A stretch of 64,000 bases of DNA from Thermoanaerobaculia bacterium (GTDB taxonomy: Bacteria; Acidobacteriota; Thermoanaerobaculia; Multivoradales; UBA5704): positions 4,996 to 68,995 of the forward strand of contig DASWRX010000316.1 in NCBI GenBank assembly GCA_036402955.1, read 5' to 3'. The notes below the pieces were generated by a model. That model made no database searches and was not told where the DNA came from. It was given only the letters and a program-made list of their open reading frames with translations. The translations under genes and the position numbers were made by a program. Shown piece after piece: positions 14,786-55,974 of the stretch (positions are counted from its first letter, which is position 1; every line of letters begins with the position of its first letter).

Positions 14786-15675
14786 GGATCGCTCGCCGCG
14801 GAGGCGCCGGCGAGGCCGCCCCAGCGGAGCTTGCCACGCAGATTGTCGTAGAAGCTCCGCCCGCTGACCTTGGCGAGCCGCACCTTGGCGGCGGCGCGGG
14901 TGACGCGCACCGTATCGCGGAAGCCGAGCGAGGTCCCCTCCTGGCCGTCCAGCGTCAGGTAGACCTCCTCCGCCTGCGTCTCCAGCGTCACCTCGATCGG
15001 CCCGGCGTCGGGCACCACGATGGGGCGCAGCGACAGGGCGTGCGGGCAGATGGGCGTCAGCACCGCCACCGGCAGCAGCGGATCGAGGATCGGCCCGCCC
15101 GCCGAGAGGTTGTAGGCGGTCGAGCCGGTGGGGGTCGAAATGATCAGGCCGTCGGCGCGGAAGCGGGCGATCAGATGACCGTCCACCCGCAGCGTCAGCT
15201 CGACGATGCGGGCCAAGGCGCTCTTGGTGATCACCGCGTCGTTGAGCACCCGGAAGCGGGTGGGGGGGCCGCCGTCGCGCCGCAGCTCGACGTCGAAGAG
15301 CGAGCGCTCCTCGATCTCGAACCGTCCCTCCAGCACCTGGACGACGGCGGGGTACAGCTCGCCGCGGTTGATCTCGGTGAGGAAGCCGAGATTGCCCAGG
15401 TTGACCCCCAGGATCGGCACCCCGGGCCGCACCGTCCGCGCCACCGAGAGCAGCGTGCCGTCGCCGCCGAGCACCACCACTAGGTCGTAGGCGCCGCCGG
15501 GCTCGAAAGGAGGCTCGCCCCGCGCGCCGCGGGAGCGCAGGGTGGCCTCGTCGACCGCCGCTTCGAGGCCGCGGCGGCGCAACCACTCCGAGAGCTCGTA
15601 GGCGGTGTGCATGGCGTCGCGGCTCGCCGCCTTGGCCATGATGCCGACGCGCTGGAAGGCGGCCGGCGGGCTCAT
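14749..15675 (-). CDS. nadK: NAD(+) kinase
   Basis: GGDGTLL motif (VVVLGGDGTLLSVAR) and full-length PpnK similarity. The ATG overlaps the tlyA stop (ATGA). Confidence 0.85.
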   Translation of the reverse strand: MSPPAAFQRVGIMAKAASRDAMHTAYELSEWLRRRGLEAAVDEATLRSRGARGEPPFEPGGAYDLVVVLGGDGTLLSVARTVRPGVPILGVNLGNLGFLTEINRGELYPAVVQVLEGRFEIEERSLFDVELRRDGGPPTRFRVLNDAVITKSALARIVELTLRVDGHLIARFRADGLIISTPTGSTAYNLSAGGPILDPLLPVAVLTPICPHALSLRPIVVPDAGPIEVTLETQAEEVYLTLDGQEGTSLGFRDTVRVTRAAAKVRLAKVSGRSFYDNLRGKLRWGGLAGASAASDPWGDGGDGGGGE

Positions 15676-16448: not shown

Positions 16449-16524
16449 AACGGCTTCATTTCCAGGGCCGAGTCCCGTCCGGCGGGCGAACGTTGCAACG
16501 GGTGTGCCCGCGAGCCCCTATATA

Positions 16525-22649: not shown

Positions 22650-22878
22650 CAGATGAGGAGAAGGTAAAGGCATCCCCCACGCGGCCGTGTGGGCCGTGCG
22701 TTTAGAACCTGAAACGCGCCAGGTGGGTGTCCGCTTCGTGAGCCGTTAGCGTCCTCGTACGAGCGAGGCTGGCACAGGCCACACGAGTAAAAGACTCCCG
22801 TGGAATGAATGTTGGTTCTACAATCGTAGTACCCATCACGAACCACGCAGGGGATGCTGACCCTTGATTCATCATATC
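22650..22878 (-). ncRNA. ssrS: candidate 6S RNA
   Basis: Non-coding 290-nt gap directly downstream of zapA. The minus-strand RNA folds by eye into a long rod. 5' GAUGA..AAGG..GCAUCCCCUGCGUGG pairs with 3' CCGCGUGGGGGAUGC..CCUU..UCAUC. An internal helix pairs CGUGUGGCCUGUGC with GCACGGCCCACACG around unpaired central regions. Ends are approximate. Confidence 0.6.
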
Positions 22879-31465: not shown

Positions 31466-31542
31466 TGGTAGGCGCTAGCGGACTCGAACCGCTGACCTCT
31501 ACCGTGTGAAGGTAGCGCTCTAACCAGCTGAGCTAAGCGCCT
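31466..31542 (-). tRNA. tRNA-Val (anticodon CAC), CCA encoded
   Basis: Hand-folded cloverleaf. Acceptor AGGCGCT/AGCGCCT, D arm GCTC..GAGC, anticodon stem CTACC/GGTAG with loop TTCACAC, T arm AGCGG-TTCGAGT-CCGCT, then ACCA. Confidence 0.9.
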
Positions 31543-31634: not shown

Positions 31635-31711
31635 TGGTAGGCCCAAGCGGACTTGAACCGCTGACCTCTACGATGTCAACGTAGCGCTCTAACCAACTGA
31701 GCTATGGGCCT
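31635..31711 (-). tRNA. tRNA-Val (anticodon GAC), CCA encoded
   Basis: Hand-folded cloverleaf. Acceptor AGGCCCA/TGGGCCT, anticodon stem CTACG/CGTAG with loop TTGACAT, T arm AGCGG-TTCAAGT-CCGCT, then ACCA. Confidence 0.9.
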
Positions 31712-33390: not shown

Positions 33391-35553
33391 TCAGCCCCTC
33401 GCGCGCGCCCCGGGGACGACGAAGCGCAGCGCGCTCGCCGCTCCGGAGACCGAGACGCGGAGCGTGTACTCGCCCGGCTTGAGGTCGGCCGGCAGACGGA
33501 AGGTGGCGACGGCGCGGTCCGCTCCCCCATCGGCGCCGGCGCGCCGGTCGGCGATCTCCAGACCGCCGGCCGGGGTCTCGCGCCCGTCGGCGGCGATCAC
33601 GGTGGCCTCCCCTTTCCAGGGAGCGGCGCCGAGGTTGTAGCCGGCGACGACCAGCCGCACCTCGCGGCCGGGCGGCAGCTCCGGCCGGGCGGCCGGGACG
33701 AACGGCTGGTTGCGGAGGAGGAAGGGGTAGGCGGGCGCCGGCCCCTCCCCCCGCTGCTGCTCGCGCACCATCAGCCAGCGGTTCGGGGGCTCGGGGACGA
33801 ACGGCGGCAGCAGCACCGGCTCGGCGGGGCCGAAGGCCGGCACGTGGAGCGCGGCCACCTTGAGGCCGGAGACGCCGCTGGCGGCGTTGCGCACCAGCAC
33901 CCGCAGCGAGTAGTCGCCGGGCTGGAGGTCGAGGTGGCCGAAGAACTTGAGGCCCCCCTGCCGCAGCAGGGCGCCGGCCTTGGTGAGGTCGAGGCCGACG
34001 GTCTGGGTGAAGAAGTCGTGCACCGCGCCGCCCTCGTCGAGGGCGTAGGCATAGATCTCCACCGGCAGCGAGGCGGGCTGGCGGCCGGCGAGCAGGGTCG
34101 GGCCGCCGACCTCGATCACCACCGGCACGTAGGCCTTCTCGCCCGACGCCCGGAACGGCGCCGCCAGCACCGAGGCGGCGATGGCGTCGCTCTCCTCGCC
34201 GCTCATCACCTGGTTGGCGGCGGCGAGGAGCTTCTCGATCGGGTCCTGCTCGGCGTAGGGCTTCGGCGGGTAGTAGCCCGGCCGGTGGACCAGCCGCGCG
34301 CCGTGGACGGGCTTCTCGAGGTCCACCCGCAGCCGGTGGAAGTCCCCCTCGGCGCCCGAACGCTCGGGCTGGATGGCCAGCACGTAGGTGACGCTGGTGC
34401 GCTTGAGCATCTGACCCATCGCCGCGCCGAGGTCGTTGTAGCTCTCGTAGAGCTCGCCGCCGGTGCCGCGGGCCATCAGCAGCAGGCTCTCGCGGCCGCC
34501 CAGCCGCGGCGCTCCCTGGTCGGCGCCGGCGCGCAGGCCGCCGATATCGACCGCCTGGAGGGTGCAGTCGGCGCGGCGGAACTCCTCGAGCATCCGCTCG
34601 ACGGCGTTGCTCACCTCGGTCAGGCCGTAGCGCTCCTCGGGGCTGGTGCGCCAGCTCTCGCCGTTGAGGGACTGCTCGTGGATCGTCTGCTCCTTCTCCG
34701 CGTCGACCGTCCCCTGCAGCAGCGAGACATCGAACCCCTCGGAGAGGAAGACCAGGTACTTGCGCCCCTCGACCACCGACATCTGCCGCGCCAGGTCGGC
34801 GAGCGACTTGGAGAAGGTCACGACGCGGGTCTTCAGGGCCGTGCGGTCGGCCAGCTCCACCTGCCGGGTGATCGCTTCGATCCGCGTCAGATCCCCGGAA
34901 TCGGTCGCCTCCGAGAGCGGATCGCGGGTCACCCGCGGCGCCGCGCCGCTGGCGACGTTGTCCACCCCCAGCACCTCCTGTAGCACCAGCCGCAACGGGT
35001 CGGCCGAGCTCGCCGTGAGGTCGAACAGGCCGAGACCGCCGAGGGCGCTCTGGAGCTGCCGCCGGTCGGAGGTGAAACCGAGCACGAGCTGCGGGCCACG
35101 CGAGGCGCTGTAGGTGGCCACGGCCACCAGGTCGGTGGGATGGAGATCGGCGAGCAGGCCGGCCGCCGCCCGCCGCGCCCGCACAATCGCCTTGGGCTCG
35201 GAGAAGGCGAGGTCGAACAGCATCAGGAAGTGGCGTCGCGCCGCCGACGGCACCGGGGAGGCCCGCCCCGCCCCTGTCGCCGCCAGGTCGAGCACCTCGA
35301 AGCCGGTGACCGGCAGCCGGCGGTGCCCCTCCCAGACCGCGAAGTCGCCGGCCTGGAGGCCGCGCACGGGCTCGCCGTCGCGCACCACCTGCACCGGCAC
35401 GTCGACGGACAGCACCTGGGCGGAGCCCGTGAAGGAGGAGGGCGCGGGGTGGGCCTGGGGCGCGGACGGGGTCTGCCCCCGCCCGGCGACCGCCGTCCCC
35501 AGGCTCAGCAGCGCGACGGCGGCGCCGCGCCGGATGCCGCGTCTCAGCCGCAT
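33391..35553 (-). CDS. secreted VWA-domain protein, acidobacterial VWFA-related type with long C-terminal beta-rich extension (paralog 1)
   Basis: Signal peptide; N-terminal VDVPVQVVRDGEPVRGLQAGDF module; VWA core (FLMLFDLAFSEP...LVAVATYS...YLVFLSEGFD); ~350-aa C-terminal extension. Alignable by eye over its full length to the next three genes. Confidence 0.8.
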   Translation of the reverse strand: MRLRRGIRRGAAVALLSLGTAVAGRGQTPSAPQAHPAPSSFTGSAQVLSVDVPVQVVRDGEPVRGLQAGDFAVWEGHRRLPVTGFEVLDLAATGAGRASPVPSAARRHFLMLFDLAFSEPKAIVRARRAAAGLLADLHPTDLVAVATYSASRGPQLVLGFTSDRRQLQSALGGLGLFDLTASSADPLRLVLQEVLGVDNVASGAAPRVTRDPLSEATDSGDLTRIEAITRQVELADRTALKTRVVTFSKSLADLARQMSVVEGRKYLVFLSEGFDVSLLQGTVDAEKEQTIHEQSLNGESWRTSPEERYGLTEVSNAVERMLEEFRRADCTLQAVDIGGLRAGADQGAPRLGGRESLLLMARGTGGELYESYNDLGAAMGQMLKRTSVTYVLAIQPERSGAEGDFHRLRVDLEKPVHGARLVHRPGYYPPKPYAEQDPIEKLLAAANQVMSGEESDAIAASVLAAPFRASGEKAYVPVVIEVGGPTLLAGRQPASLPVEIYAYALDEGGAVHDFFTQTVGLDLTKAGALLRQGGLKFFGHLDLQPGDYSLRVLVRNAASGVSGLKVAALHVPAFGPAEPVLLPPFVPEPPNRWLMVREQQRGEGPAPAYPFLLRNQPFVPAARPELPPGREVRLVVAGYNLGAAPWKGEATVIAADGRETPAGGLEIADRRAGADGGADRAVATFRLPADLKPGEYTLRVSVSGAASALRFVVPGARARG

Positions 35554-35557
35554 GACG

Positions 35558-37786
35558 TCAGCGGCCTCCGCGCGCTCCCGCCGCCCCCGCCACCGCGAAC
35601 CGCGCCGTGCTGGTCTCCGACTTGCCGGAGCCGTCGGTCAGGGTGACGCGTAGCGTGTAGTCGCCCGGCGGCAGGCTGGGCGGCCGGAAGTTGGCCACCA
35701 TCCGCGTCGGGTTGCCCCCCTTGGCCGCCTCGCGGTCCACCACCTGGAGAGCGCCGCCCGGCAGCTCCCGGCCGTCGGCCCCCAGGACCTTGACCTCCGC
35801 CTTCCACTCCCCCGCGCCCAGGTTGTAGCCCTGGAGCACCAGGCGGGCGTCCTGGCCCGCGCTGAGGGCCGGCCGCGAGGTCGGCACGTAGGGCTGGTCC
35901 TTGAGCATGAAGAGGTAGGGCAGGTCCGGCTGGCCCGCCTTCTTCGCCTGCCGCAGGTTCACCCAGCGGCCAGGAGCCGGATCGACGAAGATGCCCGGCA
36001 TCAGCGCCGGCGCCCCCTGGCCCAGCGACGGCACCATGAGCTCGGTGATCCGCAGGCTGGAATTCCCCGTCGTGCCGTTGCGCACCAGAGTGCGGATCGA
36101 GTACGCGCCCGGCGGCAGCTCGAGGTTGCCGAAGAACTTCAGTCCCCCCTGGCGCAGCGCCGTCTCGGCCTTGGTCAGGTCGAGCCCCACCGTCTGGGTC
36201 ATGAAGTCCTGCACGCTGCCGTTCTGGTCCAGCGCGTAGACGTAGATCTCCACCGGCAGTTGCGGCACCTGCTTGCCGGCCAGCAGCGTCGGACCGTCCA
36301 CCTCGATCACCACCGGCACGTTCGCCCGGTCCTTGCCGGCGAACGGCGCCGCGAGCACCGCGGTGCCGATGGTGCCGCCGTCCTGGCCCATCACGTCGCT
36401 GCTGGCCTCCAGCAGCCGCTGGAAGGGCGATTGGTCCTTGTAGGGGCGCGGTGAGTAGTAGCCCTGCCGGTAGACCACCCGCGTGCCGCGCGGGGCGTTC
36501 TTCAGCTCCACCCGCAGGTTGTGGTAGGAGCCGTCCTCCTTGAGGCCTTCGGGCTGGAACGCCAGCACGTAGGTGACACTGGTGCGGCGCATCATCTGCC
36601 CCATCGCGGCCGAGAGGTCGTTGTAGTTCTCGAACAGCTCGCCGCCCGTGCTCTTCGCCATGTTGAACAGCGCCTCGCGGCCGTTGCCCCGGTGGGCGGC
36701 CAGATCGGCACCGGCGCGCAGGCCGCCGATGTCCACCGCCTCGATCATGCAGTCGGCCCGGCGGAACGACTCGAGCATCTTCTCGACCGCGTTCTGCGAG
36801 CGGGTGTCGCCGAACTTGTCGTCCGAGCCGGACGCGCCGGTGGGGGCCTGGATCCGGCTCTCGTCGCCGATGTCCTGCCGGGCCTCCTGGTCCTCCGGCG
36901 AGCCGGCGCCGAGCGACGCGGCGGAGGAGGTCGCCTTGCCCGAGACCAGCGAGCTGTCGTACCCCTCGGAGAGGTAGACCACGTACTTGCGCCCCTCGAC
37001 TTCGCCCATCAGCCGGGCGAGATCCCCAAAGCGCTGGGTGAGCTTGCGCACCTCCTGCTGCTGGATGTTGCGGTCGGCGCGCTCGGACTGGGTGGCGAAC
37101 GTGGTCAGCGTGTCGATCAGGGCGTCGTCCTTGGCCCCCTGGAGCTCGTCCCCCTGGCGCCGCGCCGACGACTGGGAGGGGGTGGAGGGCCGGGTGTCGA
37201 TCTGTCGCTGGGACTGGGTGAGCACCAGGCGCAGGGGATCGGGAGCGCGGTCGATCAGCTTCGGCAGCCCCAGGGTGTCCAGCGCGGCGGCGATCTGCCG
37301 GCGGTCCGGCGTGAAGCCGAGCACGAGCTGGGTGCCCTGCAGCGAGCTGTAGGTGCCCACCGCCACCAGGTCGGTCGGATGCAGCCCGTCGACCACCCGC
37401 TGGGCCGCCTGGCGGGCCTTGGCGATCGACTTCGGCTCGGAGAAGGAGAGGTCGAACAGCATCAGGAAGTGGCGCCGGGCCGAGACCGGAACCTGCGCCG
37501 CGGCGGCCGCCGGCGTGCCCGCGGGAACGGCGGCGGCGAGGTCGAGCATCTCGAAGCCGGTGATGTTCATCTTCTTGCGGCCTTCGTAGACCTCGAAGTC
37601 GCTCGCCTTCAGCCCGCGGACCGGCTCGCCGTCCTTGACCACCTGGACGGGAACCTCGACCGCGACGACGCTCGTCGACTCCGCGAAGGTCTGCTTCTGC
37701 TGGGCGGCTCCCGGCCAGGGCGCGAGCCCCAGCGCCGCGGCGGCGAGCAGAATGGCGATGGATTGCGCTCGGCGACTGTGTTTCAT
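35558..37786 (-). CDS. secreted VWA-domain protein (paralog 2)
   Basis: Same architecture as paralog 1. Start trimmed to ATG 37786 (MKHSRRAQSIAILLAAAALG signal peptide, SD AAGGA). Confidence 0.8.
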   Translation of the reverse strand: MKHSRRAQSIAILLAAAALGLAPWPGAAQQKQTFAESTSVVAVEVPVQVVKDGEPVRGLKASDFEVYEGRKKMNITGFEMLDLAAAVPAGTPAAAAAQVPVSARRHFLMLFDLSFSEPKSIAKARQAAQRVVDGLHPTDLVAVGTYSSLQGTQLVLGFTPDRRQIAAALDTLGLPKLIDRAPDPLRLVLTQSQRQIDTRPSTPSQSSARRQGDELQGAKDDALIDTLTTFATQSERADRNIQQQEVRKLTQRFGDLARLMGEVEGRKYVVYLSEGYDSSLVSGKATSSAASLGAGSPEDQEARQDIGDESRIQAPTGASGSDDKFGDTRSQNAVEKMLESFRRADCMIEAVDIGGLRAGADLAAHRGNGREALFNMAKSTGGELFENYNDLSAAMGQMMRRTSVTYVLAFQPEGLKEDGSYHNLRVELKNAPRGTRVVYRQGYYSPRPYKDQSPFQRLLEASSDVMGQDGGTIGTAVLAAPFAGKDRANVPVVIEVDGPTLLAGKQVPQLPVEIYVYALDQNGSVQDFMTQTVGLDLTKAETALRQGGLKFFGNLELPPGAYSIRTLVRNGTTGNSSLRITELMVPSLGQGAPALMPGIFVDPAPGRWVNLRQAKKAGQPDLPYLFMLKDQPYVPTSRPALSAGQDARLVLQGYNLGAGEWKAEVKVLGADGRELPGGALQVVDREAAKGGNPTRMVANFRPPSLPPGDYTLRVTLTDGSGKSETSTARFAVAGAAGARGGR

Positions 37787-37869
37787 GCCTCGTCCTTTCA
37801 GCCCTCGGTACGTTCCGGTTCCTCCAGCCTCTCCGGCAAGGGATACGAATAGATGCGATAAAAATAGCA

Positions 37870-40047
37870 TCAATGGCCTCCCGCCACCACGAACGGCGCG
37901 CTGCTGGCGGCGACCGCGCCGCCCGCGCCGGTGACCGTGACGCGCAGGAGGTAGCCCCCCGGCGGCAGGTGGGGCGGCCGGAAGGCCGCCACCAGGCGGT
38001 CCGGCCCGCCGGCGCTCGCCGCCTCCCGCTGGATGATCCGCACCGCGCCGTTGCCGACCTCCTTGCCGTCGGGGGTGAGCACCTGCGCCGACGCCCGGAG
38101 GTCGCCGGCGCCGAGGTCGTAGCCCACCAGCGCCATCGGCGCCTCGCGCCCCTCGGCGAGCGCCGGCCGCGACGCCGGCACGTAGGGCTGCTGGCGGGCC
38201 ATGAACGGGTAGTCCACCTGCGGCCCGCGGGCAGCCTCGCGCACGATCATCCAGCGGCCGGCCGCCGGGTCGGGGAACAGCGCGGGCAGCAGCGCCGGCC
38301 CCTTGCCGAAGGCCGGCACCGTCACCGTGGCGACGCGCAGGCTGAAGCCGCCGGTGACACCATTGCGCACCAGCGTGCGCACCGAGTAGTCGCCCGGCGG
38401 CAGGTCGAGGTGGCCGAAGAACTTGAGCCCCCCCTGCCGCAGCGCCGGCGCGGCCTTGGCGAGGTCGAGCCCGAGCGACTGGTAGAGGAAGTCCTGGATG
38501 GCGCCGCCGACGTCGAGGGCGTAGGCGTAGACCTCGACCGGCAGGGTCCCTCCGGCGTCCCTGCCGGCGAGCAGCGCCGGACCGTCCGCCTCGATCAGCA
38601 CCGGCACGTAGGCTCGCTCACCGGCGGCGCGGAAAGGGGCGGCGAGCACGGCGCCGGGGATCCCTCCCGCCTCCTCGCCGCCCATCAGCCGCGAGGAGGC
38701 CTCGAACAACTTCTCCAGCGGGTTGAGCTGCGCGTAAGCCTTGGGCGAGTAGTAGCCGGCGCGGTAGGCGACCCGGGTGCCCCGCGGCGCGTTCTTCAGC
38801 TCCACCTTGAGCTTATGGTATACGCCGGGCTTGCCCGGCTCCGGCTGGACCGCCAAGACGTAGGTCAGGCTGGTCCGCGCCAGCAGGCCGCTCATCGCCC
38901 CGGCGAGATCGTTGGAATTCTCGAACAGCTCGCCGCCGGTCCCCCGCGCCATGGCGAGGAGGGTGTCCTTGCCACCGGTCCGCGCCCCCGCCGCCTGGTC
39001 GCCGGCGGCCCGCAGGCCCCCGACGTCCACCGCCTCGATGACGCAGTCGGCGCGGCGGAACTCCTCGAGCATGCGCTCGAGCCCGTTGAGCGACTCGGAG
39101 CTGCCGAAATTCTCCTGCGAGTCGGAGAGGTAGGCCTGCTGGTTGGCCCGGTCCTGGTCGAGCGCCGACTGGGTCTGGACGTCGGCGTCGGTGCCGATGC
39201 CGAGCGAGCCGGGAGCCGCGGCGGTCCGGCCGCCGCCGGTGAGGAACGAGCTGTCGAACCCTTCGGAAAAGTAGATCACCTGCTTGCGTCCCGGCAGGCT
39301 CCCCAGCATCTGGGCGAGCTGGGCATAGGCGCGGGTCAGCGCCGTGACGGCCGCCTTCTGGACGCTGCGGCTGGACTCCTTGCCCAGGTTCGCGAGCTGT
39401 CCGCCCTGCGCGTCCAGCAGCTCGTTGGTGCGCGCCAGGTCGGCCTCCTGCGAGCGTTCGGCGAGCTGGGGCTGCCCGCCCCCCGCGCCGGCCCGCGCCA
39501 TCACCAGCCGCAGGGGGTCGGAGGCGCGGTCGTCGCGCACCGCTCCGAGCGAGTCGAGGGCCGCGTCCACCTGCCGCCGGTCGGAGGTGAAGCCGAGCAC
39601 GATCTGCGGGCCGCGCGCCGCGCTGTAGGTCGCCACCCCCACCAGGTCCCCCGGCCGGATCCCCTTGAGCACCAGGCCGCGGGCCGCCTCGCGCGCTGCG
39701 GCCACCGAGCGGGCGCCGGAGAAGGCGAGGTCGAAGAGCAGCAGGAACTGCCGGCGGCCGGAGAGGGGCAGGGCCGCCCGGCCGGCGCCCGCTGGGACGG
39801 CGAGGTCGACGGCGTGGAAGCCGGCGACCGGCAGCTTCCGGCGCCCCTCGGAGACCTCGAAGTCGTTCGCGGTCAGGCCGCGGACCGGCTGGCCGTCCCG
39901 GACTACCTGGACGGGGATCTCGACCTCCACGACGTCCGTCGAGCCGGCGAACGTGCCGGACGTCTGGGCGGCGGCGGGCGGTAAGGCGGTGAAAGACAGC
40001 GCAGCCAGGGTGGCGCAGAGCCACGCGAGCGGCTTCGGGTGCGGCAT
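37870..40047 (-). CDS. secreted VWA-domain protein (paralog 3)
   Basis: Same architecture. Signal peptide MPHPKPLAWLCATLAALSFTALPPAAAQ. SD GGAGGGG. Confidence 0.8.
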   Translation of the reverse strand: MPHPKPLAWLCATLAALSFTALPPAAAQTSGTFAGSTDVVEVEIPVQVVRDGQPVRGLTANDFEVSEGRRKLPVAGFHAVDLAVPAGAGRAALPLSGRRQFLLLFDLAFSGARSVAAAREAARGLVLKGIRPGDLVGVATYSAARGPQIVLGFTSDRRQVDAALDSLGAVRDDRASDPLRLVMARAGAGGGQPQLAERSQEADLARTNELLDAQGGQLANLGKESSRSVQKAAVTALTRAYAQLAQMLGSLPGRKQVIYFSEGFDSSFLTGGGRTAAAPGSLGIGTDADVQTQSALDQDRANQQAYLSDSQENFGSSESLNGLERMLEEFRRADCVIEAVDVGGLRAAGDQAAGARTGGKDTLLAMARGTGGELFENSNDLAGAMSGLLARTSLTYVLAVQPEPGKPGVYHKLKVELKNAPRGTRVAYRAGYYSPKAYAQLNPLEKLFEASSRLMGGEEAGGIPGAVLAAPFRAAGERAYVPVLIEADGPALLAGRDAGGTLPVEVYAYALDVGGAIQDFLYQSLGLDLAKAAPALRQGGLKFFGHLDLPPGDYSVRTLVRNGVTGGFSLRVATVTVPAFGKGPALLPALFPDPAAGRWMIVREAARGPQVDYPFMARQQPYVPASRPALAEGREAPMALVGYDLGAGDLRASAQVLTPDGKEVGNGAVRIIQREAASAGGPDRLVAAFRPPHLPPGGYLLRVTVTGAGGAVAASSAPFVVAGGH

Positions 40048-40159
40048 GGGTCCCCTCCATCCGGGACGGCTCGCCGGCCCGGGAACGCCCTCGCTTCGGG
40101 GTCAGCTCAAACGGCAGATCAGAACCACAAGTCCCTCGACGATTTCCCTCAATAAGATA

Positions 40160-42373
40160 TCAGCGCTCGACCTGGAAGGGTAGGGAGTTCGTCTGCTGAT
40201 GTCCGGTCACCGGATCGGTGACCGCCACTTTGAGGACGTAATCCCCGGCATTGAGTCCCGCCGGATCGAAGGTGGCGACCAGCTTGTCCAGCCCCTGGAT
40301 GCCGGTCGCCGTCCGCTCGACGTTCTCCAGCTTGCCGGCCGGGGAGAGCTTGCCGTCGGCCGCAACCACCTTGCCATCGACGTGGACCGCCCCCTTGCCC
40401 AAGTTGTAGGCCACCAGGCAGAGGCGGGCGGGCTTGGGGCCGTGCAGCACCGGCCGGGCGGCGGGGACGTATGGCTCGCCCGACACGGTGAACGGATAGA
40501 TGACCGACCCCTGCAGCGTGTTGGCCCCCTGCTCGCGCACCATCAGCCACTTCTGGTGCTCCTCCATGAAGAACGGCGGGAGCAGGACCGGCTGGGCCTG
40601 GTCGTAGGTGGGCACGGTCACCCGCATCGTCTGGACGCCGGTGCGCCCGGTCTCGGCGTTGCGCACCAGCACGCGCACGTTGTAGGCGCCGGGCTGCAGG
40701 TCGAAGTGGCCGTAATACTTGATGCCGCCCTCCAGCAGGGCCTGGCGACTCTTGCCCTTGTCGAGGTCGAGCGCCACCCGCTGGGTGAAGAAATCGCGCA
40801 TCTGCCCCTGGAGGTCGCTGACGTAGGTGTAGAACTCGACGTCTATCTTCTTGCCCGTGTGGCCGTTGAGCAGGCTCTTGCCGCCGGCCTCGATGATCAC
40901 CGGCACGTAGGCCCGCTGCGGCGTGGCGCGGAACGCGGCGGAGAGGACGTCGAGATCGATCTCCCGCCTCGGCGTGGCGCTGGCGATGCCGTCCGAGGCG
41001 AGCAGGTTCTTCTCCAGCGCGTCGAGCTGCTTGAAGGGCCGCGGCGCGTAGTAGCCGGTGCGGTGGGCCAGGTGGGCCCCCGCCGGCAGCTTCAGCGCCT
41101 TGACCCGCAGCCGGTGGTAGCCGCCGTCGAGCTTGAGGTCCGACCGCTCGAAGGTCAGCAGGTAGGTGACGCTGGTGCGCTCGAGCACCCGGTCGAGCGG
41201 CTCGCGCAGGTTGTTGGCGTCCTTGAACAGCTCGCCGCCGGTCTCGTTGGCGATGTAGAACAGGGCCCCCTGGCCGTCCGGGCGGGCTCGCTCGTCGGCG
41301 CCGGCCCGCAGGCCGCCGATGTCGACCGCCTGGATGACGCAGTCGGCGCGGCGGAACTCGTCGAGCATCCGCTTGAGGTCTCCCTGCAGGCCGGTGTTGC
41401 CGAAGCGCTGGTCGTTGTCGACCTTCCAGATCTCGCCGAACTCGGCGCTGAGGTTATCGTCCACCGCGTCTTGATCGGTGGTGTTGCGGCCGAGCAGCAG
41501 CCGGCTGTCGAACCCCTCGGAAAAGAAGAGGACCTGCTTGCGCCCCTGCACGGAGTTGAGCGCGCGCGCCACCTGTGCGAGCGAGCGCGAGTAGCTGGAG
41601 ATACGGCCCACCTCGTACGAGCGGTCGCTGCGCGCGGCGGCGAAGGCGATCGTCTGCAGGTAGTCGTAGAGCACCTGCTCCTTCTGCTGCCGGATGTCGA
41701 CATTGCGCTGGCTGCCGCTCCCCGCCCCCTCGAGTTCGATGGCCGAGCCGAGCTGCTCGGTCGCCGGCGGCTCGATCATGAAACGGAGCGGATCGTTCTT
41801 GGCCTCGGCGTCGAGGGCGCGGTGATAGCCGAGGGTGTCGATCGCCCGCGCGAGCTGCGCCCGGTCGGGGGTGAAAGTGATGATCAGCTTGGGGCCGTTC
41901 TCCAGCGAGTAGGTGGCGACCGCCGCGAGGTCCTCCGGGTGGAGCGAGTGGAGGACGAAGTCGCGCGCCGCCAGGCGCGCCTTGAGGATCGCCGTCGGCG
42001 AGGAGAACGACAGGTCGAACAGGAACAGGAAGCGGCGGCGGGCCGCCGAGGGGATGTCCACCGGCGGGCGACTGGAGGCCGGGGCGGGGGTCGCCTCGCC
42101 GGCCTGCGCCTCGAGCGTCTTGAGATCCACCACCTCGAAGGAGGTGATCTTCTGCCGCTCGTTGCCGTCGTAGACCTCGAAGTCGTCGGCGGTGAGCCCG
42201 CGTACCGGCTCGCCGTCACGGCCGACGACGTTGACCGGGACCTCCACCGCGACCACCTGCGAGGTGCCCTCGAACGTCTGGGCCCGGGCCGGCGGCGGCG
42301 CCACCGCCGCGAAAGCGAGGAGCGGAAGGAGAAGGCTCGTCGGGAGAGGGCGGAAAGGTGACAACGCGCGCAT
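40160..42373 (-). CDS. secreted VWA-domain protein (paralog 4)
   Basis: Same architecture. Trimmed from the 1177-aa ORF to ATG 42373 (MRALSPFRPLPTSLLLPLLAFAAVA, SD AAGGAG). Confidence 0.8.
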   Translation of the reverse strand: MRALSPFRPLPTSLLLPLLAFAAVAPPPARAQTFEGTSQVVAVEVPVNVVGRDGEPVRGLTADDFEVYDGNERQKITSFEVVDLKTLEAQAGEATPAPASSRPPVDIPSAARRRFLFLFDLSFSSPTAILKARLAARDFVLHSLHPEDLAAVATYSLENGPKLIITFTPDRAQLARAIDTLGYHRALDAEAKNDPLRFMIEPPATEQLGSAIELEGAGSGSQRNVDIRQQKEQVLYDYLQTIAFAAARSDRSYEVGRISSYSRSLAQVARALNSVQGRKQVLFFSEGFDSRLLLGRNTTDQDAVDDNLSAEFGEIWKVDNDQRFGNTGLQGDLKRMLDEFRRADCVIQAVDIGGLRAGADERARPDGQGALFYIANETGGELFKDANNLREPLDRVLERTSVTYLLTFERSDLKLDGGYHRLRVKALKLPAGAHLAHRTGYYAPRPFKQLDALEKNLLASDGIASATPRREIDLDVLSAAFRATPQRAYVPVIIEAGGKSLLNGHTGKKIDVEFYTYVSDLQGQMRDFFTQRVALDLDKGKSRQALLEGGIKYYGHFDLQPGAYNVRVLVRNAETGRTGVQTMRVTVPTYDQAQPVLLPPFFMEEHQKWLMVREQGANTLQGSVIYPFTVSGEPYVPAARPVLHGPKPARLCLVAYNLGKGAVHVDGKVVAADGKLSPAGKLENVERTATGIQGLDKLVATFDPAGLNAGDYVLKVAVTDPVTGHQQTNSLPFQVER

Positions 42374-42420
42374 CGCGAACTCCTTGATCCGGCCGCTTCG
42401 AACGGCCCTGTGCTTCTGTC

Positions 42421-43530
42421 TCACCGGCCCAGCATGCGGGCGTAGTGGAGGGCGTCCTGGTTGGTGGCGTCCAGCTTCAGGGCCCGCGACAGGTAGTGCC
42501 GCGCCTTCTCCATGTCGCCCAGCGCGAGATAGACCTTGACGAAACCGAGGTGGACCTCGGGCAGCTCGCTGTCGAGGCGGAGGGCGCGCACCATGTAGTC
42601 GAGGGCCTTGTCGCCGTCTCCCCGAGCGAGCGCCACCTCTCCCTCGTAGACGAAGAAGAACGGGTTGGTGGTGTTCTCCGCCTCCACCTTCGCCAGCAAC
42701 CGGTTCGCCTCGTCGGCGCGGCCGAGCTCCTGGAGGGCGCGCGCCATGTTGACCAGCAGGGTCGAGTTGTCCGGGCTGATCTGGAGCCCCCGCTGGTAGG
42801 TCTCGATCGCCTTCTGCGGCTCGCCGCCGCGCGCCTGGACCACCCCGAGATTGTTGATCGCCTTGTCGAACCGTGGCGCGATCCGGGTGGCGGTGGTCAG
42901 CAGCTCGCGGGCGCGGGCGAGGTCGCCGCCGAGCAGCGCCTCGGCGCCGAGGTTGTTGTAGTAGTGCGCCGCGGCCGTCAGGTCGTCGATCGGGTTGAAC
43001 TCCTTGTAGGTCTTCTGCCGGTAGGGGATGAAGTCGAAGGGGCGCAGCACGCCGTCGATGTACATGCCGGCGACGATGTGCCCCTGGCTGACCACCATCC
43101 CCTCGCGGTGGTTCCACTTCTGGAGGTCGGTCACCTCCACATAGTAGGGACTGAGGCCCAGCTCCCGCGCCACCCCCACGAACAGGTTGACGAAGGAGAG
43201 GCAGTTGCCGGAGCGGGTGCGGTAGGTGGCGACCGCGTCCTTGGTGGGCGTCAGCGAGTACTGGAGCTGCAGGCCGTCGAAGATGAAGTCGTTGACCTGG
43301 TTGACCCGGCGCAGCTCGCTCGAGAGCTTCGGCAGCTTCTGCAGCGAGCCGCGGATGGTGTCGTCGAGCTCGAAGGGGACCTCGACCCGGGCCGCCTCCT
43401 GGGCACCGATCTCGCGGGCGTACTGCTGGCGCAGGTAGCCCACCGAATCGAACGGTTTGTACTCGGTGCAGCCCGCCGCGAGCAGGGCCGCGGCGAGGAG
43501 GGTCGCGCGGGCGGTACCTCGGTTCATCAC
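42421..43530 (-). CDS. lipoprotein with transglutaminase-like cysteine-protease core and C-terminal TPR repeats
   Basis: Lipobox LLAAGC. Cys-His-Asp arrangement (SGNCLSFVNLF ... GHIVAGMY ... PFDF) as in the transglutaminase core. At least 4 TPR-like repeats follow. Confidence 0.72.
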   Translation of the reverse strand: MMNRGTARATLLAAALLAAGCTEYKPFDSVGYLRQQYAREIGAQEAARVEVPFELDDTIRGSLQKLPKLSSELRRVNQVNDFIFDGLQLQYSLTPTKDAVATYRTRSGNCLSFVNLFVGVARELGLSPYYVEVTDLQKWNHREGMVVSQGHIVAGMYIDGVLRPFDFIPYRQKTYKEFNPIDDLTAAAHYYNNLGAEALLGGDLARARELLTTATRIAPRFDKAINNLGVVQARGGEPQKAIETYQRGLQISPDNSTLLVNMARALQELGRADEANRLLAKVEAENTTNPFFFVYEGEVALARGDGDKALDYMVRALRLDSELPEVHLGFVKVYLALGDMEKARHYLSRALKLDATNQDALHYARMLGR

Positions 43531-43540
43531 GAGTCAATAT

Positions 43541-43556
43541 AGCAGGGAATGTGCCA
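43541..43556 (-). promoter_or_regulatory. candidate sigma-54 (-24/-12) promoter facing the lipoprotein/VWA operon
   Basis: Minus strand reads TGGCAC-ATTCC-CTGCT, with GG and GC at canonical spacing. No SD lies between it and the GTGATG start. Confidence 0.42.
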
Positions 43557-43655
43557 TGGGCGCGCTGGCCGCCCTGAGCCCCGCCTCCATAGGGAGAGCG
43601 CCGCGCCGGACGGCCCGCCCCGCTCGCGGTCCTCCAAAACCTTGGATCGATCTCG

Positions 43656-43672
43656 TTCAACGAATTGAATTC
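43656..43672. promoter_or_regulatory. AT-rich overlapping palindromes (TTCAA-CGAA-TTGAA / GAATTGAATTC) midway between the two sigma-54 matches
   Basis: Read from the sequence. It lies about 100 nt from each candidate promoter, which suits an activator or IHF site. Confidence 0.3.
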
Positions 43673-43764
43673 CGCCTTGCCCCGCTCCGCCACCCGGCGC
43701 GGTCCCTTGCCATAAGGTATGATCCTTCAGCCACTTACGCCGGCCCGCGAATCCCTCCGCCGAG

Positions 43765-43780
43765 TGGCACTCCACTTGCT
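43765..43780 (+). promoter_or_regulatory. candidate sigma-54 (-24/-12) promoter facing the TonB-dependent receptor operon
   Basis: TGGCAC-TCCAC-TTGCT is an exact match to TGGCAC-N5-TTGCW. It lies about 180 nt upstream of the receptor ATG. Confidence 0.6.
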
Positions 43781-43881
43781 TGACCCAGGGTCGATCCGTT
43801 GGCTAGAGTTCTCAGGCCAACTCATACCGGGTCTCGGAACGGAAAGGGGGTGTTGCTGGACACTGCATCACAGTCACTGCG

Positions 43882-43926
43882 CTTTCATGATTTTTCCCAT
43901 GAAGCCACCGCGGCCTCTCGCGGTGG
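43882..43926 (+). promoter_or_regulatory. two adjacent stem-loops in the receptor 5' leader
   Basis: CTTTCATG..CCATGAAG (imperfect) followed by a perfect 8-bp stem CCACCGCG-gcctct-CGCGGTGG. Confidence 0.3.
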
Positions 43927-43959
43927 GCTTACCAACCACCAAACGGGAGGTTTATCAAG

Positions 43960-46900
43960 ATGAAGAACATCCATTCCTGGGGACGGATCGTGGCCGTTGC
44001 CGCGTTGCTGTTGCTGGCCGTCGGCGGAGCCGCCTTCGCCCAGTTGCAGACCGGCAGCCTCTACGGCACCGTCACCGACGACAAGGGAGCGGCGCTCCCC
44101 GGCGTCACCGTGACCTTAGGGGGCCAGGCGGCTCCGCAGGTGCAGGTCACGAACGCCCAGGGGCAGTTCCGTTTCCTGAGCCTCAGCCCGGGCAACTACA
44201 GCCTGAAGGCTGAGCTCGAGGGATTCTCGACCATCGATTACCCGAACATCGTGATCAACATCGGCCGCAACACCCAGATCGAGGTGAAGCTGTCGGCGGC
44301 CGTCGAGGACGTCATCACCGTCACGGCGGAGAGCCCGCTGCTGGACGAGCGCCGCGTTTCGACCGGCGCCACGGTCAGCCAGACCGAGCTCGAGAAGATC
44401 CCGACCTCGCGTGATCCCTGGGCGATCCTGCAGACGACCCCGGGCGTGCTCACGGACCGTATCAACGTGGGCGGCAACGAGAGCGGCCAGCAGGCGAACT
44501 ACGTGGGCCCCGGCGCGGGCGGCGATCAGGCCGTCTGGGCCGTGGACGGCGTGGTGATCACCGACATGGCGGCCCTCGGCTCGTCTCCGGCCTACTACGA
44601 CTTCGACGCGTTCGAAGAGATGCAGGTCACGACGGGCGGCTCGGACACCACGACGGCCACCCCCGGCGTCGTGCTCAACATGGTGACGAAGCGCGGCACC
44701 AACGAGTGGCGCGGCTCCGGCCGTTACTACGACACCGACAAGGCCTGGCAGGCGAAGACCAACATCGACAACAGCGAGCTCGATCACGGTGGCTCGTACA
44801 ATGGCAACCATCCCCAGACGGTGATCAAGCAGGGCAACCGCATCGTCAAGGTCCAGGACTACGGCGCCGAGCTCGGTGGCCCGATCGTCAAGGACCGCCT
44901 GTGGATCTGGGGCTCCTACGGCCGCCAGAAGGTCGACCTGCTGACCATCGCCAACGTCGGCGACCACACCGACCTCAAGACCATCAACGGCAAGCTGAAC
45001 GCGCAGATCGCCGCCAGCAACTCGGCGACGGCCTTCGTGCTCAACAGCGACAAGGTCAAGATCGGCCGCAACGCCGGCCCGACCCGGCCCCAGGAGACCA
45101 CCTGGAACCAGGGCCACTTCGGCTCCAAGCCGACCGCCGCGAAGATCGAGGACACCCACATCTTCAGCTCCAGCCTGTACGTGACGGGGCTCGCCTCGCT
45201 CGTCAACGGCGGCTTTGAGCTCGTCCCCCAGGGCGGTCTCGCGGTCACTCCGTTCCTCGATTCCGGGGGCGTGTGGCACAACACGTTCCTCATCAACACC
45301 ACCACGCGGCCGCAGAAGCAGTACAAGGTCGACGCCTCCGACTTCTTCAACACGGGGAGCCTCTCCCACGAGCTGAAGTTCGGCGCCGGCTACCGTCAGG
45401 CCGACGTGACCTCGTTCACCCGTTGGGGTGGCGCGGGCATCGAGCTCGACAAGGCGTTCTGGTTCACCGGCTTCAACCTCCTCGAGCTGGCGCGCGACGC
45501 CGGCCCGAAGGTGCAGAACACCTACAAGAACGGCTACCTGCAGGACACCATGACCGTGGGCAACCTCACGGCCAACGTGGGCGTACGGTATGACGTGCAG
45601 GGCGGCACCAACCTAGCTCGCACGGTTGCGGCCAGCTCCCTGCTGCCGACCGTCCTGCCCTCGGTCTCCGTGCCGCAGTCGGACATCGGCTTCGAGTGGA
45701 AGAGCCTGACGCCGCGTATCGGCCTCACCTACGCTCTCGGCGCCGAGCGCAAGACCCTGCTGCGGGCGAGCTACTCGCGCTTCGCGGACCAGTTGGGCTC
45801 GGGCACCTCGTCCTGGCTCAACCCGCTGGGCACGATCAGCTACGCCTACTTCGACACCACCAACCCCGGCAACGGGAACATCACCCCCGGCCAGATCGGG
45901 AACTTCTACGGGTACAGCGGCAACGTCAACCCGAACAACGGCCTCCTGCTGCAGTCCAACGCGCTCAGCTCCCACCTGTCGGCCCCCAAGACAGACGAGG
46001 TGCTGCTCGGCGTCGAGCACGCTCTGCTGCCGGAGTTCGTGGTGGGTCTCGACCTGACCTACCGCCACTACTTCGACATCCTGGATGCCCAGCGTCTGGT
46101 GTTCGACGGCAACCCGTACTCGACGGCGAACCTGAACTCCACCGGCCGCATCAACCAGGCGTCGGACTACGTGCCCTGCACCGATCCGTCGGTCCAGGCC
46201 AACCTGCAGTCCCCCTGCCCGGTCGGCACGCTGCCGGGCGGCCAGGCCTACAACGCTCCCTACTACGTCCTGCGCAATGGTGTCGCCACCCGCAACGGTG
46301 CGTACCTCTACAACGGCGGTAAGGAGCAGCAGTACAAGGGCGCTTCGATCGTCTTCAACAAGCGTCTCGCCAACCGCTGGATGCTGCGTGGCAACGTGAC
46401 CTACTCCGACTGGACGTGGAGCAAGGTTCCGGCCTCCTCGCGGATCGATCCCACCCCGCTCCTCGGCGGCGGCAATCGCGAAGGCGACGCCGTTCTCCAG
46501 GGCTCGGGCACGGCTTCGGGCGCCAAGGCCGGCGTCTACATCAGCGGCAAGTGGGCCTACAGCGTCAACGGCCTGTATCAGATCGCTCCCGACCGTCCGT
46601 GGGGCTTCAACTTCGCCATCAACGCCAACGGTCGCCAGGGCTATCCGGTCCCGTACTACAAGCGCGTCATTCTGCCGGCCAACATGCAGAGCGTCTACGA
46701 GTACGTGCAGGCCACCAACCGTCCCGACTCCTTCCGTCTGGACAACATCAACATCCTCGACGCCCGCCTGGAGAAGGAATTCAACTTCAGCGACGTCGGC
46801 CTGACCCTTGGCGTGGACTGCTTCAACGTCTTCAACAAGGGCTTCGTCCAGCAGCGCCAGCACCGCCTCGGCCTGACGACCGGCTCCGCCGCGTCGAACT

Positions 46901-46962
46901 ACGTGACCGAGGTCACCAGCCCGCGGATCTTCCGCATCGGCGCCCGTCTCAGCTTCCGTTGA
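43960..46962 (+). CDS. TonB-dependent receptor-like outer membrane protein with N-terminal carboxypeptidase-regulatory-like domain
   Basis: Signal peptide; GSLYGTVTDDKGAALPGVTVTL (CarboxypepD_reg); plug-like TVSQTELEKIPTSRDPWAILQTTPGV; long beta-barrel ending RIGARLSFR. SD GGGAGG. Confidence 0.82.
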   Translation: MKNIHSWGRIVAVAALLLLAVGGAAFAQLQTGSLYGTVTDDKGAALPGVTVTLGGQAAPQVQVTNAQGQFRFLSLSPGNYSLKAELEGFSTIDYPNIVINIGRNTQIEVKLSAAVEDVITVTAESPLLDERRVSTGATVSQTELEKIPTSRDPWAILQTTPGVLTDRINVGGNESGQQANYVGPGAGGDQAVWAVDGVVITDMAALGSSPAYYDFDAFEEMQVTTGGSDTTTATPGVVLNMVTKRGTNEWRGSGRYYDTDKAWQAKTNIDNSELDHGGSYNGNHPQTVIKQGNRIVKVQDYGAELGGPIVKDRLWIWGSYGRQKVDLLTIANVGDHTDLKTINGKLNAQIAASNSATAFVLNSDKVKIGRNAGPTRPQETTWNQGHFGSKPTAAKIEDTHIFSSSLYVTGLASLVNGGFELVPQGGLAVTPFLDSGGVWHNTFLINTTTRPQKQYKVDASDFFNTGSLSHELKFGAGYRQADVTSFTRWGGAGIELDKAFWFTGFNLLELARDAGPKVQNTYKNGYLQDTMTVGNLTANVGVRYDVQGGTNLARTVAASSLLPTVLPSVSVPQSDIGFEWKSLTPRIGLTYALGAERKTLLRASYSRFADQLGSGTSSWLNPLGTISYAYFDTTNPGNGNITPGQIGNFYGYSGNVNPNNGLLLQSNALSSHLSAPKTDEVLLGVEHALLPEFVVGLDLTYRHYFDILDAQRLVFDGNPYSTANLNSTGRINQASDYVPCTDPSVQANLQSPCPVGTLPGGQAYNAPYYVLRNGVATRNGAYLYNGGKEQQYKGASIVFNKRLANRWMLRGNVTYSDWTWSKVPASSRIDPTPLLGGGNREGDAVLQGSGTASGAKAGVYISGKWAYSVNGLYQIAPDRPWGFNFAINANGRQGYPVPYYKRVILPANMQSVYEYVQATNRPDSFRLDNINILDARLEKEFNFSDVGLTLGVDCFNVFNKGFVQQRQHRLGLTTGSAASNYVTEVTSPRIFRIGARLSFR

Positions 46963-55943: not shown

Positions 55944-55974
55944 ATCGATTCAAATTCCTGGATGCGGGAGAGGG

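Follow-up and report, generated by a model that had tools for sequence, protein, structure and literature searches.

A predicted sigma-54 promoter with paired putative activator dyads in the divergent lipoprotein-receptor intergenic region of a Thermoanaerobaculia genome

Background

The stretch of DNA analysed here, referred to throughout as the window, comprises 64,000 nucleotides (nt) of contig DASWRX010000316.1 (positions 4,996 to 68,995, forward strand; GenBank assembly GCA_036402955.1) from a Thermoanaerobaculia bacterium, a soil member of the phylum Acidobacteriota. Two sets of genes diverge in it from an intergenic gap of 430 base pairs (bp). The plus arm begins with a gene for a TonB-dependent receptor of 1000 amino acids (aa) (43960..46962), which carries an N-terminal CarboxypepD_reg domain and a Plug domain, and the minus arm begins with a lipoprotein gene (42421..43527, minus strand) whose product has an LAAGC lipobox, a transglutaminase-like core and TPR repeats. 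Acidobacteriota are abundant in soil and difficult to culture, and their gene regulation is almost uncharted.

A first-pass annotation of this DNA had proposed that two back-to-back sigma-54 promoters in the gap place both arms under one RpoN-dependent switch, that the lipoprotein mRNA is leaderless or nearly so, and that a central palindrome serves as a shared enhancer or IHF site. In this paper, we report a computational analysis of the gap and of its counterparts in related genomes.

Methods

Both strands of the 64-kb window (~128,000 positions) were scanned for sigma-54 motifs and scored with an independent weight matrix derived from 29 intergenic sigma-54 sites located by chromatin immunoprecipitation (ChIP) in Salmonella (PMC3844500, Table 3). 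The comparison set was obtained by searching the receptor protein against one genome per species, and consisted of 78 loci, all from metagenome-assembled genomes (MAGs) of Acidobacteriota, mostly Thermoanaerobaculia with some labelled Holophagales; these loci share kinship and counts over them therefore overstate the number of independent observations. The divergent lipoprotein-receptor layout is retained in ~43 of the 78. The upstream regions of 41 lipoprotein orthologs were aligned on the protein start.

The promoter of the receptor gene

The plus strand of the gap carries TGGCAC-TCCAC-TTGCT (TGGCACTCCACTTGCT) at 43765-43780, an exact match to the sigma-54 consensus TGGCAC-N5-TTGCW, and the minus strand carries TGGCAC-ATTCC-CTGCT (TGGCACATTCCCTGCT) at 43556-43541, which has a single mismatch, C for T at -15; both are present as the first-pass annotation had read them. 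The exact consensus occurs once on the two strands of the window (0.02 expected), and with one mismatch allowed there are 3 matches against 0.96 expected, two of the three lying inside the gap. The weight matrix, proposed earlier as a check, ranked the same two sites highest in the whole window, with the minus site first (19.0 bits), the plus site second (16.1 bits) and the next hit at 11.5 bits. As background, the best score in 1245 random 190-nt coding segments of the related loci was at most 13.8 bits.

Upstream of the receptor gene, YGGCAC-N5-TTGCY is present within one mismatch in ~70 of the 78 loci, 32 of which match all 11 specified bases. The five-nucleotide spacer differs among loci (TCCAC, TTCGC, CCCCC, CCGGC and others) while the flanks stay constant. 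Within one mismatch, the motif occurs 70 times in 30.4 kb of upstream sequence against 31 times in the remaining 2.02 Mb, that is 2.3 versus 0.015 per kb, a 150-fold enrichment, and several of the 31 outside matches precede other receptor paralogs or lie on the lipoprotein side. An unbiased MAFFT alignment likewise returned the block TGGCACnnnnCTTGCTTGACC as the most conserved feature upstream of the receptor. The exact match, its matrix score and its conservation together make it very probable that a sigma-54 promoter of the canonical, enhancer-dependent type at 43765-43780 drives the receptor operon, with a predicted transcription start at ~43790-43792.

A sigma-70-like promoter, TTGACC-N18-TAGAGT (43780..43809, plus strand; predicted start ~43816), abuts this site so closely that the final T of the -12 element doubles as the first T of TTGACC, with TAGAGT 18 nt on. 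The hexamer pair was found in 39 of 43 syntenic orthologs and in only 1 of 28 paralog loci, hence the ortholog group has probably gained a basal promoter. Since the paralogs keep the sigma-54 motif without the sigma-70-like hexamers, the former is no by-product of the latter. The -35 hexamer of this second promoter would probably be covered by bound sigma-54 polymerase.

One other near-consensus sequence, GGGCACACCCGTTGCA (16494-16509, minus strand), lies between an O-antigen-ligase-like gene and a pair encoding a tlyA-like methyltransferase and TamB. It scores only 7.0 bits and stands upstream of the tlyA-like and TamB genes, and is probably a chance match.

Paired dyads and an IHF-like element

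Two inverted repeats of the form TYCAA-N4-YTGRA lie in the gap as a conserved pair of putative activator sites (upstream activating sequences, UAS), the distal one (UAS1) being TCCAAAACCTTGGA at 43633..43646 and the proximal one (UAS2) TTCAACGAATTGAA at 43656..43669, 23 bp from UAS1. UAS2 is the AT-rich palindrome of the first-pass annotation, which had put it about 100 nt from both promoters; it is ~96 nt away from the plus motif and ~100 nt away from the minus one, and the dyads as a pair stand 96-132 bp from the plus -24 and 77-113 bp from the minus -24. To our knowledge, TYCAA-N4-YTGRA matches no known activator site. It is found at three places in the window (0.2 expected), and 111 of its 161 matches across ~1.07 Mb of loci fall 150-450 bp upstream of a receptor start. 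Paired dyads, spaced 21-24 bp, were found in 38 loci.

Between the proximal dyad and TGGCAC there are four classes of spacing, 77, 88-89, 98-101 and 108-113 bp, with none between and ~10.7 bp from one class to the next. Length differences between sister loci (9, 10, 10, 11, 13, 21, 22, 22 and 23 bp) also cluster on multiples of ~10.7 bp, with P ~1e-4 to 1e-5 against random lengths for a list of indels that was read by hand. Both dyads have a conserved 3' TC on the receptor-facing strand, which gives them an orientation. This phased and oriented arrangement suggests that the dyad pair probably acts as an enhancer for the receptor promoter.

At 43711..43737 on the plus strand lies an A/T-richer, IHF-like element whose core, TCAGCCACTTA (43727-43737), fits the IHF core consensus WATCAANNNNTTR. 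In 20 of 71 loci the pattern TCAR-N4-TTR recurs at a fixed -37 to -42 (about -38) from TGGCAC, and many others have a degenerate form of it at that position. In some loci the element reads as a near-dyad (ATCAA-N4-TTGAA), and a third activator site at -38 is therefore possible. The earlier proposal of a shared enhancer or IHF site is thus borne out as to an upstream enhancer, which however consists of two dyads, is separate from the IHF-like element and has a spacing tied to the receptor arm. The predicted dyads, IHF-like element and -24/-12 site have the standard anatomy of an enhancer-dependent sigma-54 promoter.

The third dyad of the window, TTCAAATTCCTGGA (55949-55962), is solitary. It sits between two converging genes, just past the last one of the plus arm (stop at 55943) and short of the end of an ABC ATPase gene (55975), with no sigma-54 site near it.

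The promoter of the lipoprotein gene

The -12 half of the minus-strand site is part of a second, more widely conserved element. The block TTCCCTGCTATATTG (43535..43549, minus strand), which includes the extended -10 sequence TGcTATATT (43544-43536), is kept in nearly all 41 orthologs, where tTCCCTGnTATatT or TTCCCTGnTATATT is followed by 6-10 nt and then by ATG, with no Shine-Dalgarno sequence. Within the window, the extended -10 stands 8 nt before ATG 43527, a layout common to most of the 41. Both in the window and in 25 loci, the 10-mer TYCCTGNTAT has its sole occurrence at the lipoprotein promoter. No conserved -35 element was seen among the aligned orthologs.

As had been claimed, counting 12 nt from the C of the minus-strand GC (43542) leads to the G at 43530, which is the first base of GTGATGAAC and of the open reading frame (ORF) 42421..43530, and no GGAGG-type Shine-Dalgarno sequence lies between. 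The start region holds two candidate codons, GTG at 43530-43528 and ATG at 43527-43525. The annotated GTG does sit 12 nt past the GC, but it is not conserved; the conserved start codon is ATG 43527, which is therefore more likely to be the start of the lipoprotein. Transcription is predicted to begin at 43530-43527, with 43530 expected under the sigma-54 rule and 43527-43530 under the -10 rule. The notion of a leaderless or nearly leaderless mRNA gains from the conserved start layout, yet a leaderless start does not require sigma-54, because the extended -10 alone predicts the same position. From these alignments the lipoprotein mRNA is likely to be leaderless and transcribed from the conserved extended -10, sigma-70-type promoter. 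The sigma-70-type elements on both arms, and ATG 43527 as a start, had been missed at the first reading.

The sister locus L001 departs from this layout, in that an 18-nt unit (ATTGGARCCRAC...), repeated in tandem about three times, lies between its lipoprotein promoter block and the ATG (~5485-5560, minus strand). With this insertion the lipoprotein mRNA of L001 would have a leader of ~65 nt and would not be leaderless.

The -24 half of the minus site has a narrower distribution. TGGCAC was found in the window and in loci L006-L011, L026, L032, L044, L060 and L076, and L001 has it as TGGCAT, which amounts to ~13 of the 41 orthologs. The lipoprotein tree groups these loci in a single large clade, within which the element has been lost at least three times; the outgroups do not have it. 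Conservation in related loci, a check suggested with the original proposal, holds for the plus motif and the paired dyads, and for only this minority of the minus sites. Within the clade, CCATGGCAC is retained amid unconserved flanks down to ~70% protein identity, and the site scores 17.7-19.7 bits in 7 loci, above all 1245 background segments. In L006, L007, L008, L011 and L026 the -10 block is present in a second copy, and upstream of that copy stands a complete -24/-12 unit, which reads TGGCACGTTCCCTGCT in three of the five; standing apart from the -10 block, the sigma-54 unit appears to be maintained on its own. We judge it slightly the more probable that the minus-strand sigma-54 site is functional.

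Sigma-54 machinery

No enhancer-binding protein was found in the window either by a six-frame motif search (GAFTGA) or by tblastn with a related activator (best E 0.63), and a six-frame motif search, the sole test made for rpoN, returned no RpoN box, in agreement with the first-pass annotation. One of the related MAG loci, L029, encodes a Sigma54_activat-domain protein with the GAFTGA motif (13187-14851, minus strand), ~4 kb downstream of a receptor paralog that has no sigma-54 motif in the ~520 nt upstream of it. This activator is the only direct sign of sigma-54 use in the clade, the family-wide motif being indirect support.

Comparison with known systems

The plus arm resembles the glnAp2/NtrC and nifH/NifA/IHF systems, in which a -24 GG and a -12 GC also stand at fixed spacing and two activator dyads lie ~100-130 bp upstream on one helix face with a bend site between, to which the IHF-like element may correspond here. 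It differs from that class in that the activator is not encoded nearby and in its target, the operons of TonB-dependent receptors in Acidobacteriota. The Klebsiella nifH promoter, TGGTATGTTCCCTGCA, shares the -12 region GTTCCCTGC with the minus site.

A parallel to the minus site is glmY of Salmonella, one of the proven sigma-54 sites with CTGC at -12, TGGCACAATTACTGCATA (PMC3844500, Table 3). In both, the -12 CTGC runs directly into the -10 hexamer (here TGGCACATTCCCTGCTATATT), and the layout of CTGC followed by A/T is that of the minus site TGGCACATTCCCTGCTAT. At E. coli glmY the two forms of polymerase share one start, as is predicted here. The evolution of glmY/glmZ has been patchy, from sigma-54 only through both to sigma-70 only (PMC3045617), and the minus site is likewise patchy across lineages. 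However, glmY encodes a small RNA whereas the transcript predicted here is a leaderless protein-coding mRNA, and the universally conserved element here is the sigma-70 one and not the sigma-54 one.

The pexR-ahpC region of Myxococcus xanthus (PMC12754779) is also a divergent pair with a short intergenic region, in which one arm has sigma-54 and sigma-A promoters with activator dyads and the other produces a leaderless mRNA from a sigma-A promoter. There the leaderless gene is that of the activator, whereas here it is a lipoprotein gene and no activator gene is present. PexR was considered as the activator and rejected, its dyad (CACCG-n6-CGGTG) being different from TYCAA-N4-YTGRA.

Divergent sigma-54 pairs are themselves known, as hycA/hypA and zraP/hydH in the Salmonella ChIP data (PMC3844500, Table 3), and the zraP-zraS spacer of E. 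coli is bound by RpoN polymerase (PMC8743547). In hycA/hypA and zraP/zraSR, as is predicted for the window, a single intergenic region has activator sites in its middle and a sigma-54 site pointing outward on either side of them; here, by comparison, one of these sigma-54 sites overlaps a sigma-70-type promoter and lacks conservation across orthologs. What is new in the present case is its organisms, the family of target genes and the consensus of the dyads, and possibly a leaderless sigma-54 transcript.

Proposed mechanism and alternative explanations

The explanation that we favour, with moderate confidence, is that the plus arm is a sigma-54 promoter with an enhancer and that the lipoprotein arm is mainly a sigma-70-type, leaderless one. 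All of the steps that follow are drawn from sequence and comparison. Sigma-54 RNA polymerase would wait as a closed complex on TGGCAC-N5-TTGCT, and dimers of an activator encoded elsewhere would bind the dyads at 43633-43646 and 43656-43669. A bend at the IHF-like element (~43711-43737) would bring the activator to the polymerase, ATP hydrolysis would open the plus promoter, and transcription would begin near 43791, giving a receptor transcript with a ~170-nt leader that contains a Shine-Dalgarno-like element. TTGACC-N18-TAGAGT would probably supply basal expression of the receptor and compete with sigma-54 binding. The lipoprotein operon would be transcribed from the extended -10, sigma-70-type promoter with a start on, or at most 3 nt from, ATG 43527. 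In the clade of the window, the sigma-54 -24/-12 site would be superimposed on the lipoprotein -10 and both polymerases would start at the same place.

Several observations weigh against this explanation, besides the kinship of the loci and the hand-read indels already mentioned. Neither rpoN nor an activator was found in the window. About two thirds of the orthologs are without the minus -24, the minus side of the gap has no IHF-like element, and the dyads stand 54-125 bp from the minus site, with weak phasing only. Lineages that lack the -24 GG still keep TTCCC (43545-43549) directly 5' of the extended -10, and neither sigma-54 nor a sigma-70 promoter of the standard kind accounts for this. 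As for the plus arm, TAGAGT could be conserved partly for a 5' RNA hairpin (GTTGGC...GCCAAC) and not as a -10.

The alternative that survives best confines sigma-54 to the plus arm, with the minus TGGCAC as a non-functional or decaying remnant and the lipoprotein expressed as a leaderless mRNA by the housekeeping polymerase only. The patchiness of the minus -24 and its losses, the universal extended -10 and the missing IHF-like element and weak phasing on that side all speak for it. Against it stands the minus site within its clade, where CCATGGCAC is kept between lineages as distant as 70% protein identity, where five loci have an independent unit that no longer overlaps the -10, and where the matrix scores of 7 loci exceed the entire background. 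We regard this alternative as a serious one, though it is not the one we would choose.

Less probable is a strict form of the proposal from which the analysis began, namely that both arms are transcribed solely from back-to-back sigma-54 promoters with one shared central enhancer, making the whole island one RpoN unit. The two sites are after all the top matrix scores of the window, the dyads lie within 132 bp of both, and natural divergent pairs exist in hycA/hypA, zraP/hydH and E. coli zraP-zraS. Orthologs without the minus -24 nonetheless keep the -10 block close to the ATG, both arms have conserved sigma-70-type elements, and the dyad phasing and the oriented TC flank track the plus arm, with anything from 29 to 168 bp separating the dyads from the lipoprotein -10. 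We therefore consider so strict a version unlikely. Of the earlier claim, the conserved plus arm stands; the minus arm, with a -24 in one clade only and a universal sigma-70-type -10, does not fully bear it out, and a single switch for both arms is possible.

Still less probable is that the dyads are operators of an ordinary repressor or activator acting on divergent sigma-70 promoters, with no sigma-54 enhancer involved. Dyads between divergent genes are often shared operators, sigma-70-type promoters are predicted on both arms and no activator gene is nearby. With more than 120 bp between them and the plus -35 downstream, however, the dyads are out of reach of direct contact, and their distance to the lipoprotein -10 is unconstrained, whereas that to the -24 shifts only by helical-turn steps; moreover, paralog promoters that lack the sigma-70 hexamers still have a dyad at ~-111 to -116. 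Finally, that the motifs are functionless chance matches in GC-rich DNA, as the near-match at 16494-16509 appears to be, is contradicted by their conservation across related loci, their rarity and their matrix scores, and can be dismissed for practical purposes.

A bolder extension of the favoured explanation is that one orphan enhancer-binding protein, recognizing TYCAA-N4-YTGRA, controls an Oar-like TonB-dependent receptor regulon across Thermoanaerobaculia and Holophagales and here fires in both directions, with a sigma-54-dependent leaderless mRNA made from a promoter that coincides in every nucleotide with that of the housekeeping sigma. We put this forward tentatively and think it rather doubtful as a whole. 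If it were true, the minus sigma-54 promoter would start on the start codon; a literature search found no sigma-54-dependent leaderless transcript, and nothing relevant on sigma-54 control of TonB-dependent receptors in Acidobacteria.

The locus supplies a testable regulatory module in which the promoter is defined, the activator-site consensus is new and a bend site is predicted, and which appears to control numerous TonB-dependent receptor operons in each genome, class-wide. Such a module offers a handle on the activator and its signal and could predict which nutrient-uptake operons respond together. It would also allow one to test whether the overlap of sigma-54 and housekeeping promoters is routine in Acidobacteriota, and is a rare opening to ask whether a sigma-54 promoter can yield a leaderless mRNA.

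The receptor leader

Inside the ~170-nt leader predicted for the receptor transcript lies a Shine-Dalgarno-like sequence, GAAAGGGGGTGTTGC (43842..43856, plus strand), 118 nt before the ATG. The motif, with consensus GAAAGGRGGTG, is present in 55 of 71 leaders of the family; its distance from the predicted sigma-54 start is 8-21 nt in paralogs and 44-61 nt in orthologs. A small upstream ORF following the motif was considered and rejected, as a suitably spaced start codon is missing from most leaders of the family. The motif is similar to STAB-SD, the 5' mRNA stabiliser known from Bacillus thuringiensis cry3A (PMC4113751), where a perfect Shine-Dalgarno-like sequence, GAAAGGAGG, stands close to the 5' end, well away from the start codon, and takes no part in initiation. 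The present case differs in belonging to a Gram-negative-type phylum and in the motif itself, GAAAGGGGG (43842-43850), which lies ~50 nt from the predicted sigma-54 start.

Further downstream come a GC hairpin formed by CCACCGCG and CGCGGTGG (43905-43926), where orthologs have a hairpin of different sequence, then CAACCACCA (43933-43941) and the real Shine-Dalgarno sequence GGGAGG (43945-43950), which precedes the receptor gene. CAACCACCA could pair either with the upstream Shine-Dalgarno-like motif or with GGGAGG. RNAalifold predicted no consensus pairs in an alignment of 35 leader sequences and the stability of the window leader was not unusual against shuffled sequences (z = -1.09), hence a strongly structured leader RNA is unsupported. 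A known riboswitch or leader was also considered and rejected, as no intergenic Rfam match was obtained, either in the window at gathering thresholds or in 43400-44100 at E values up to 10.

Neighbouring genes and other features of the window

On the plus arm, the receptor gene is followed by genes for a CarboxypepD_reg-TPR protein, two sulfatase-TPR proteins and more TPR proteins. Downstream of the lipoprotein gene lie four large ORFs of ~720-770 aa each (33391-42421, minus strand), none of which has a significant Pfam match, and one of which has a sub-threshold match to Wzt_C. The window also encodes a full-length 6S RNA gene (22670-22856, minus strand; 84 bits) and two tRNA genes (31469-31542 and 31638-31711, both on the minus strand).

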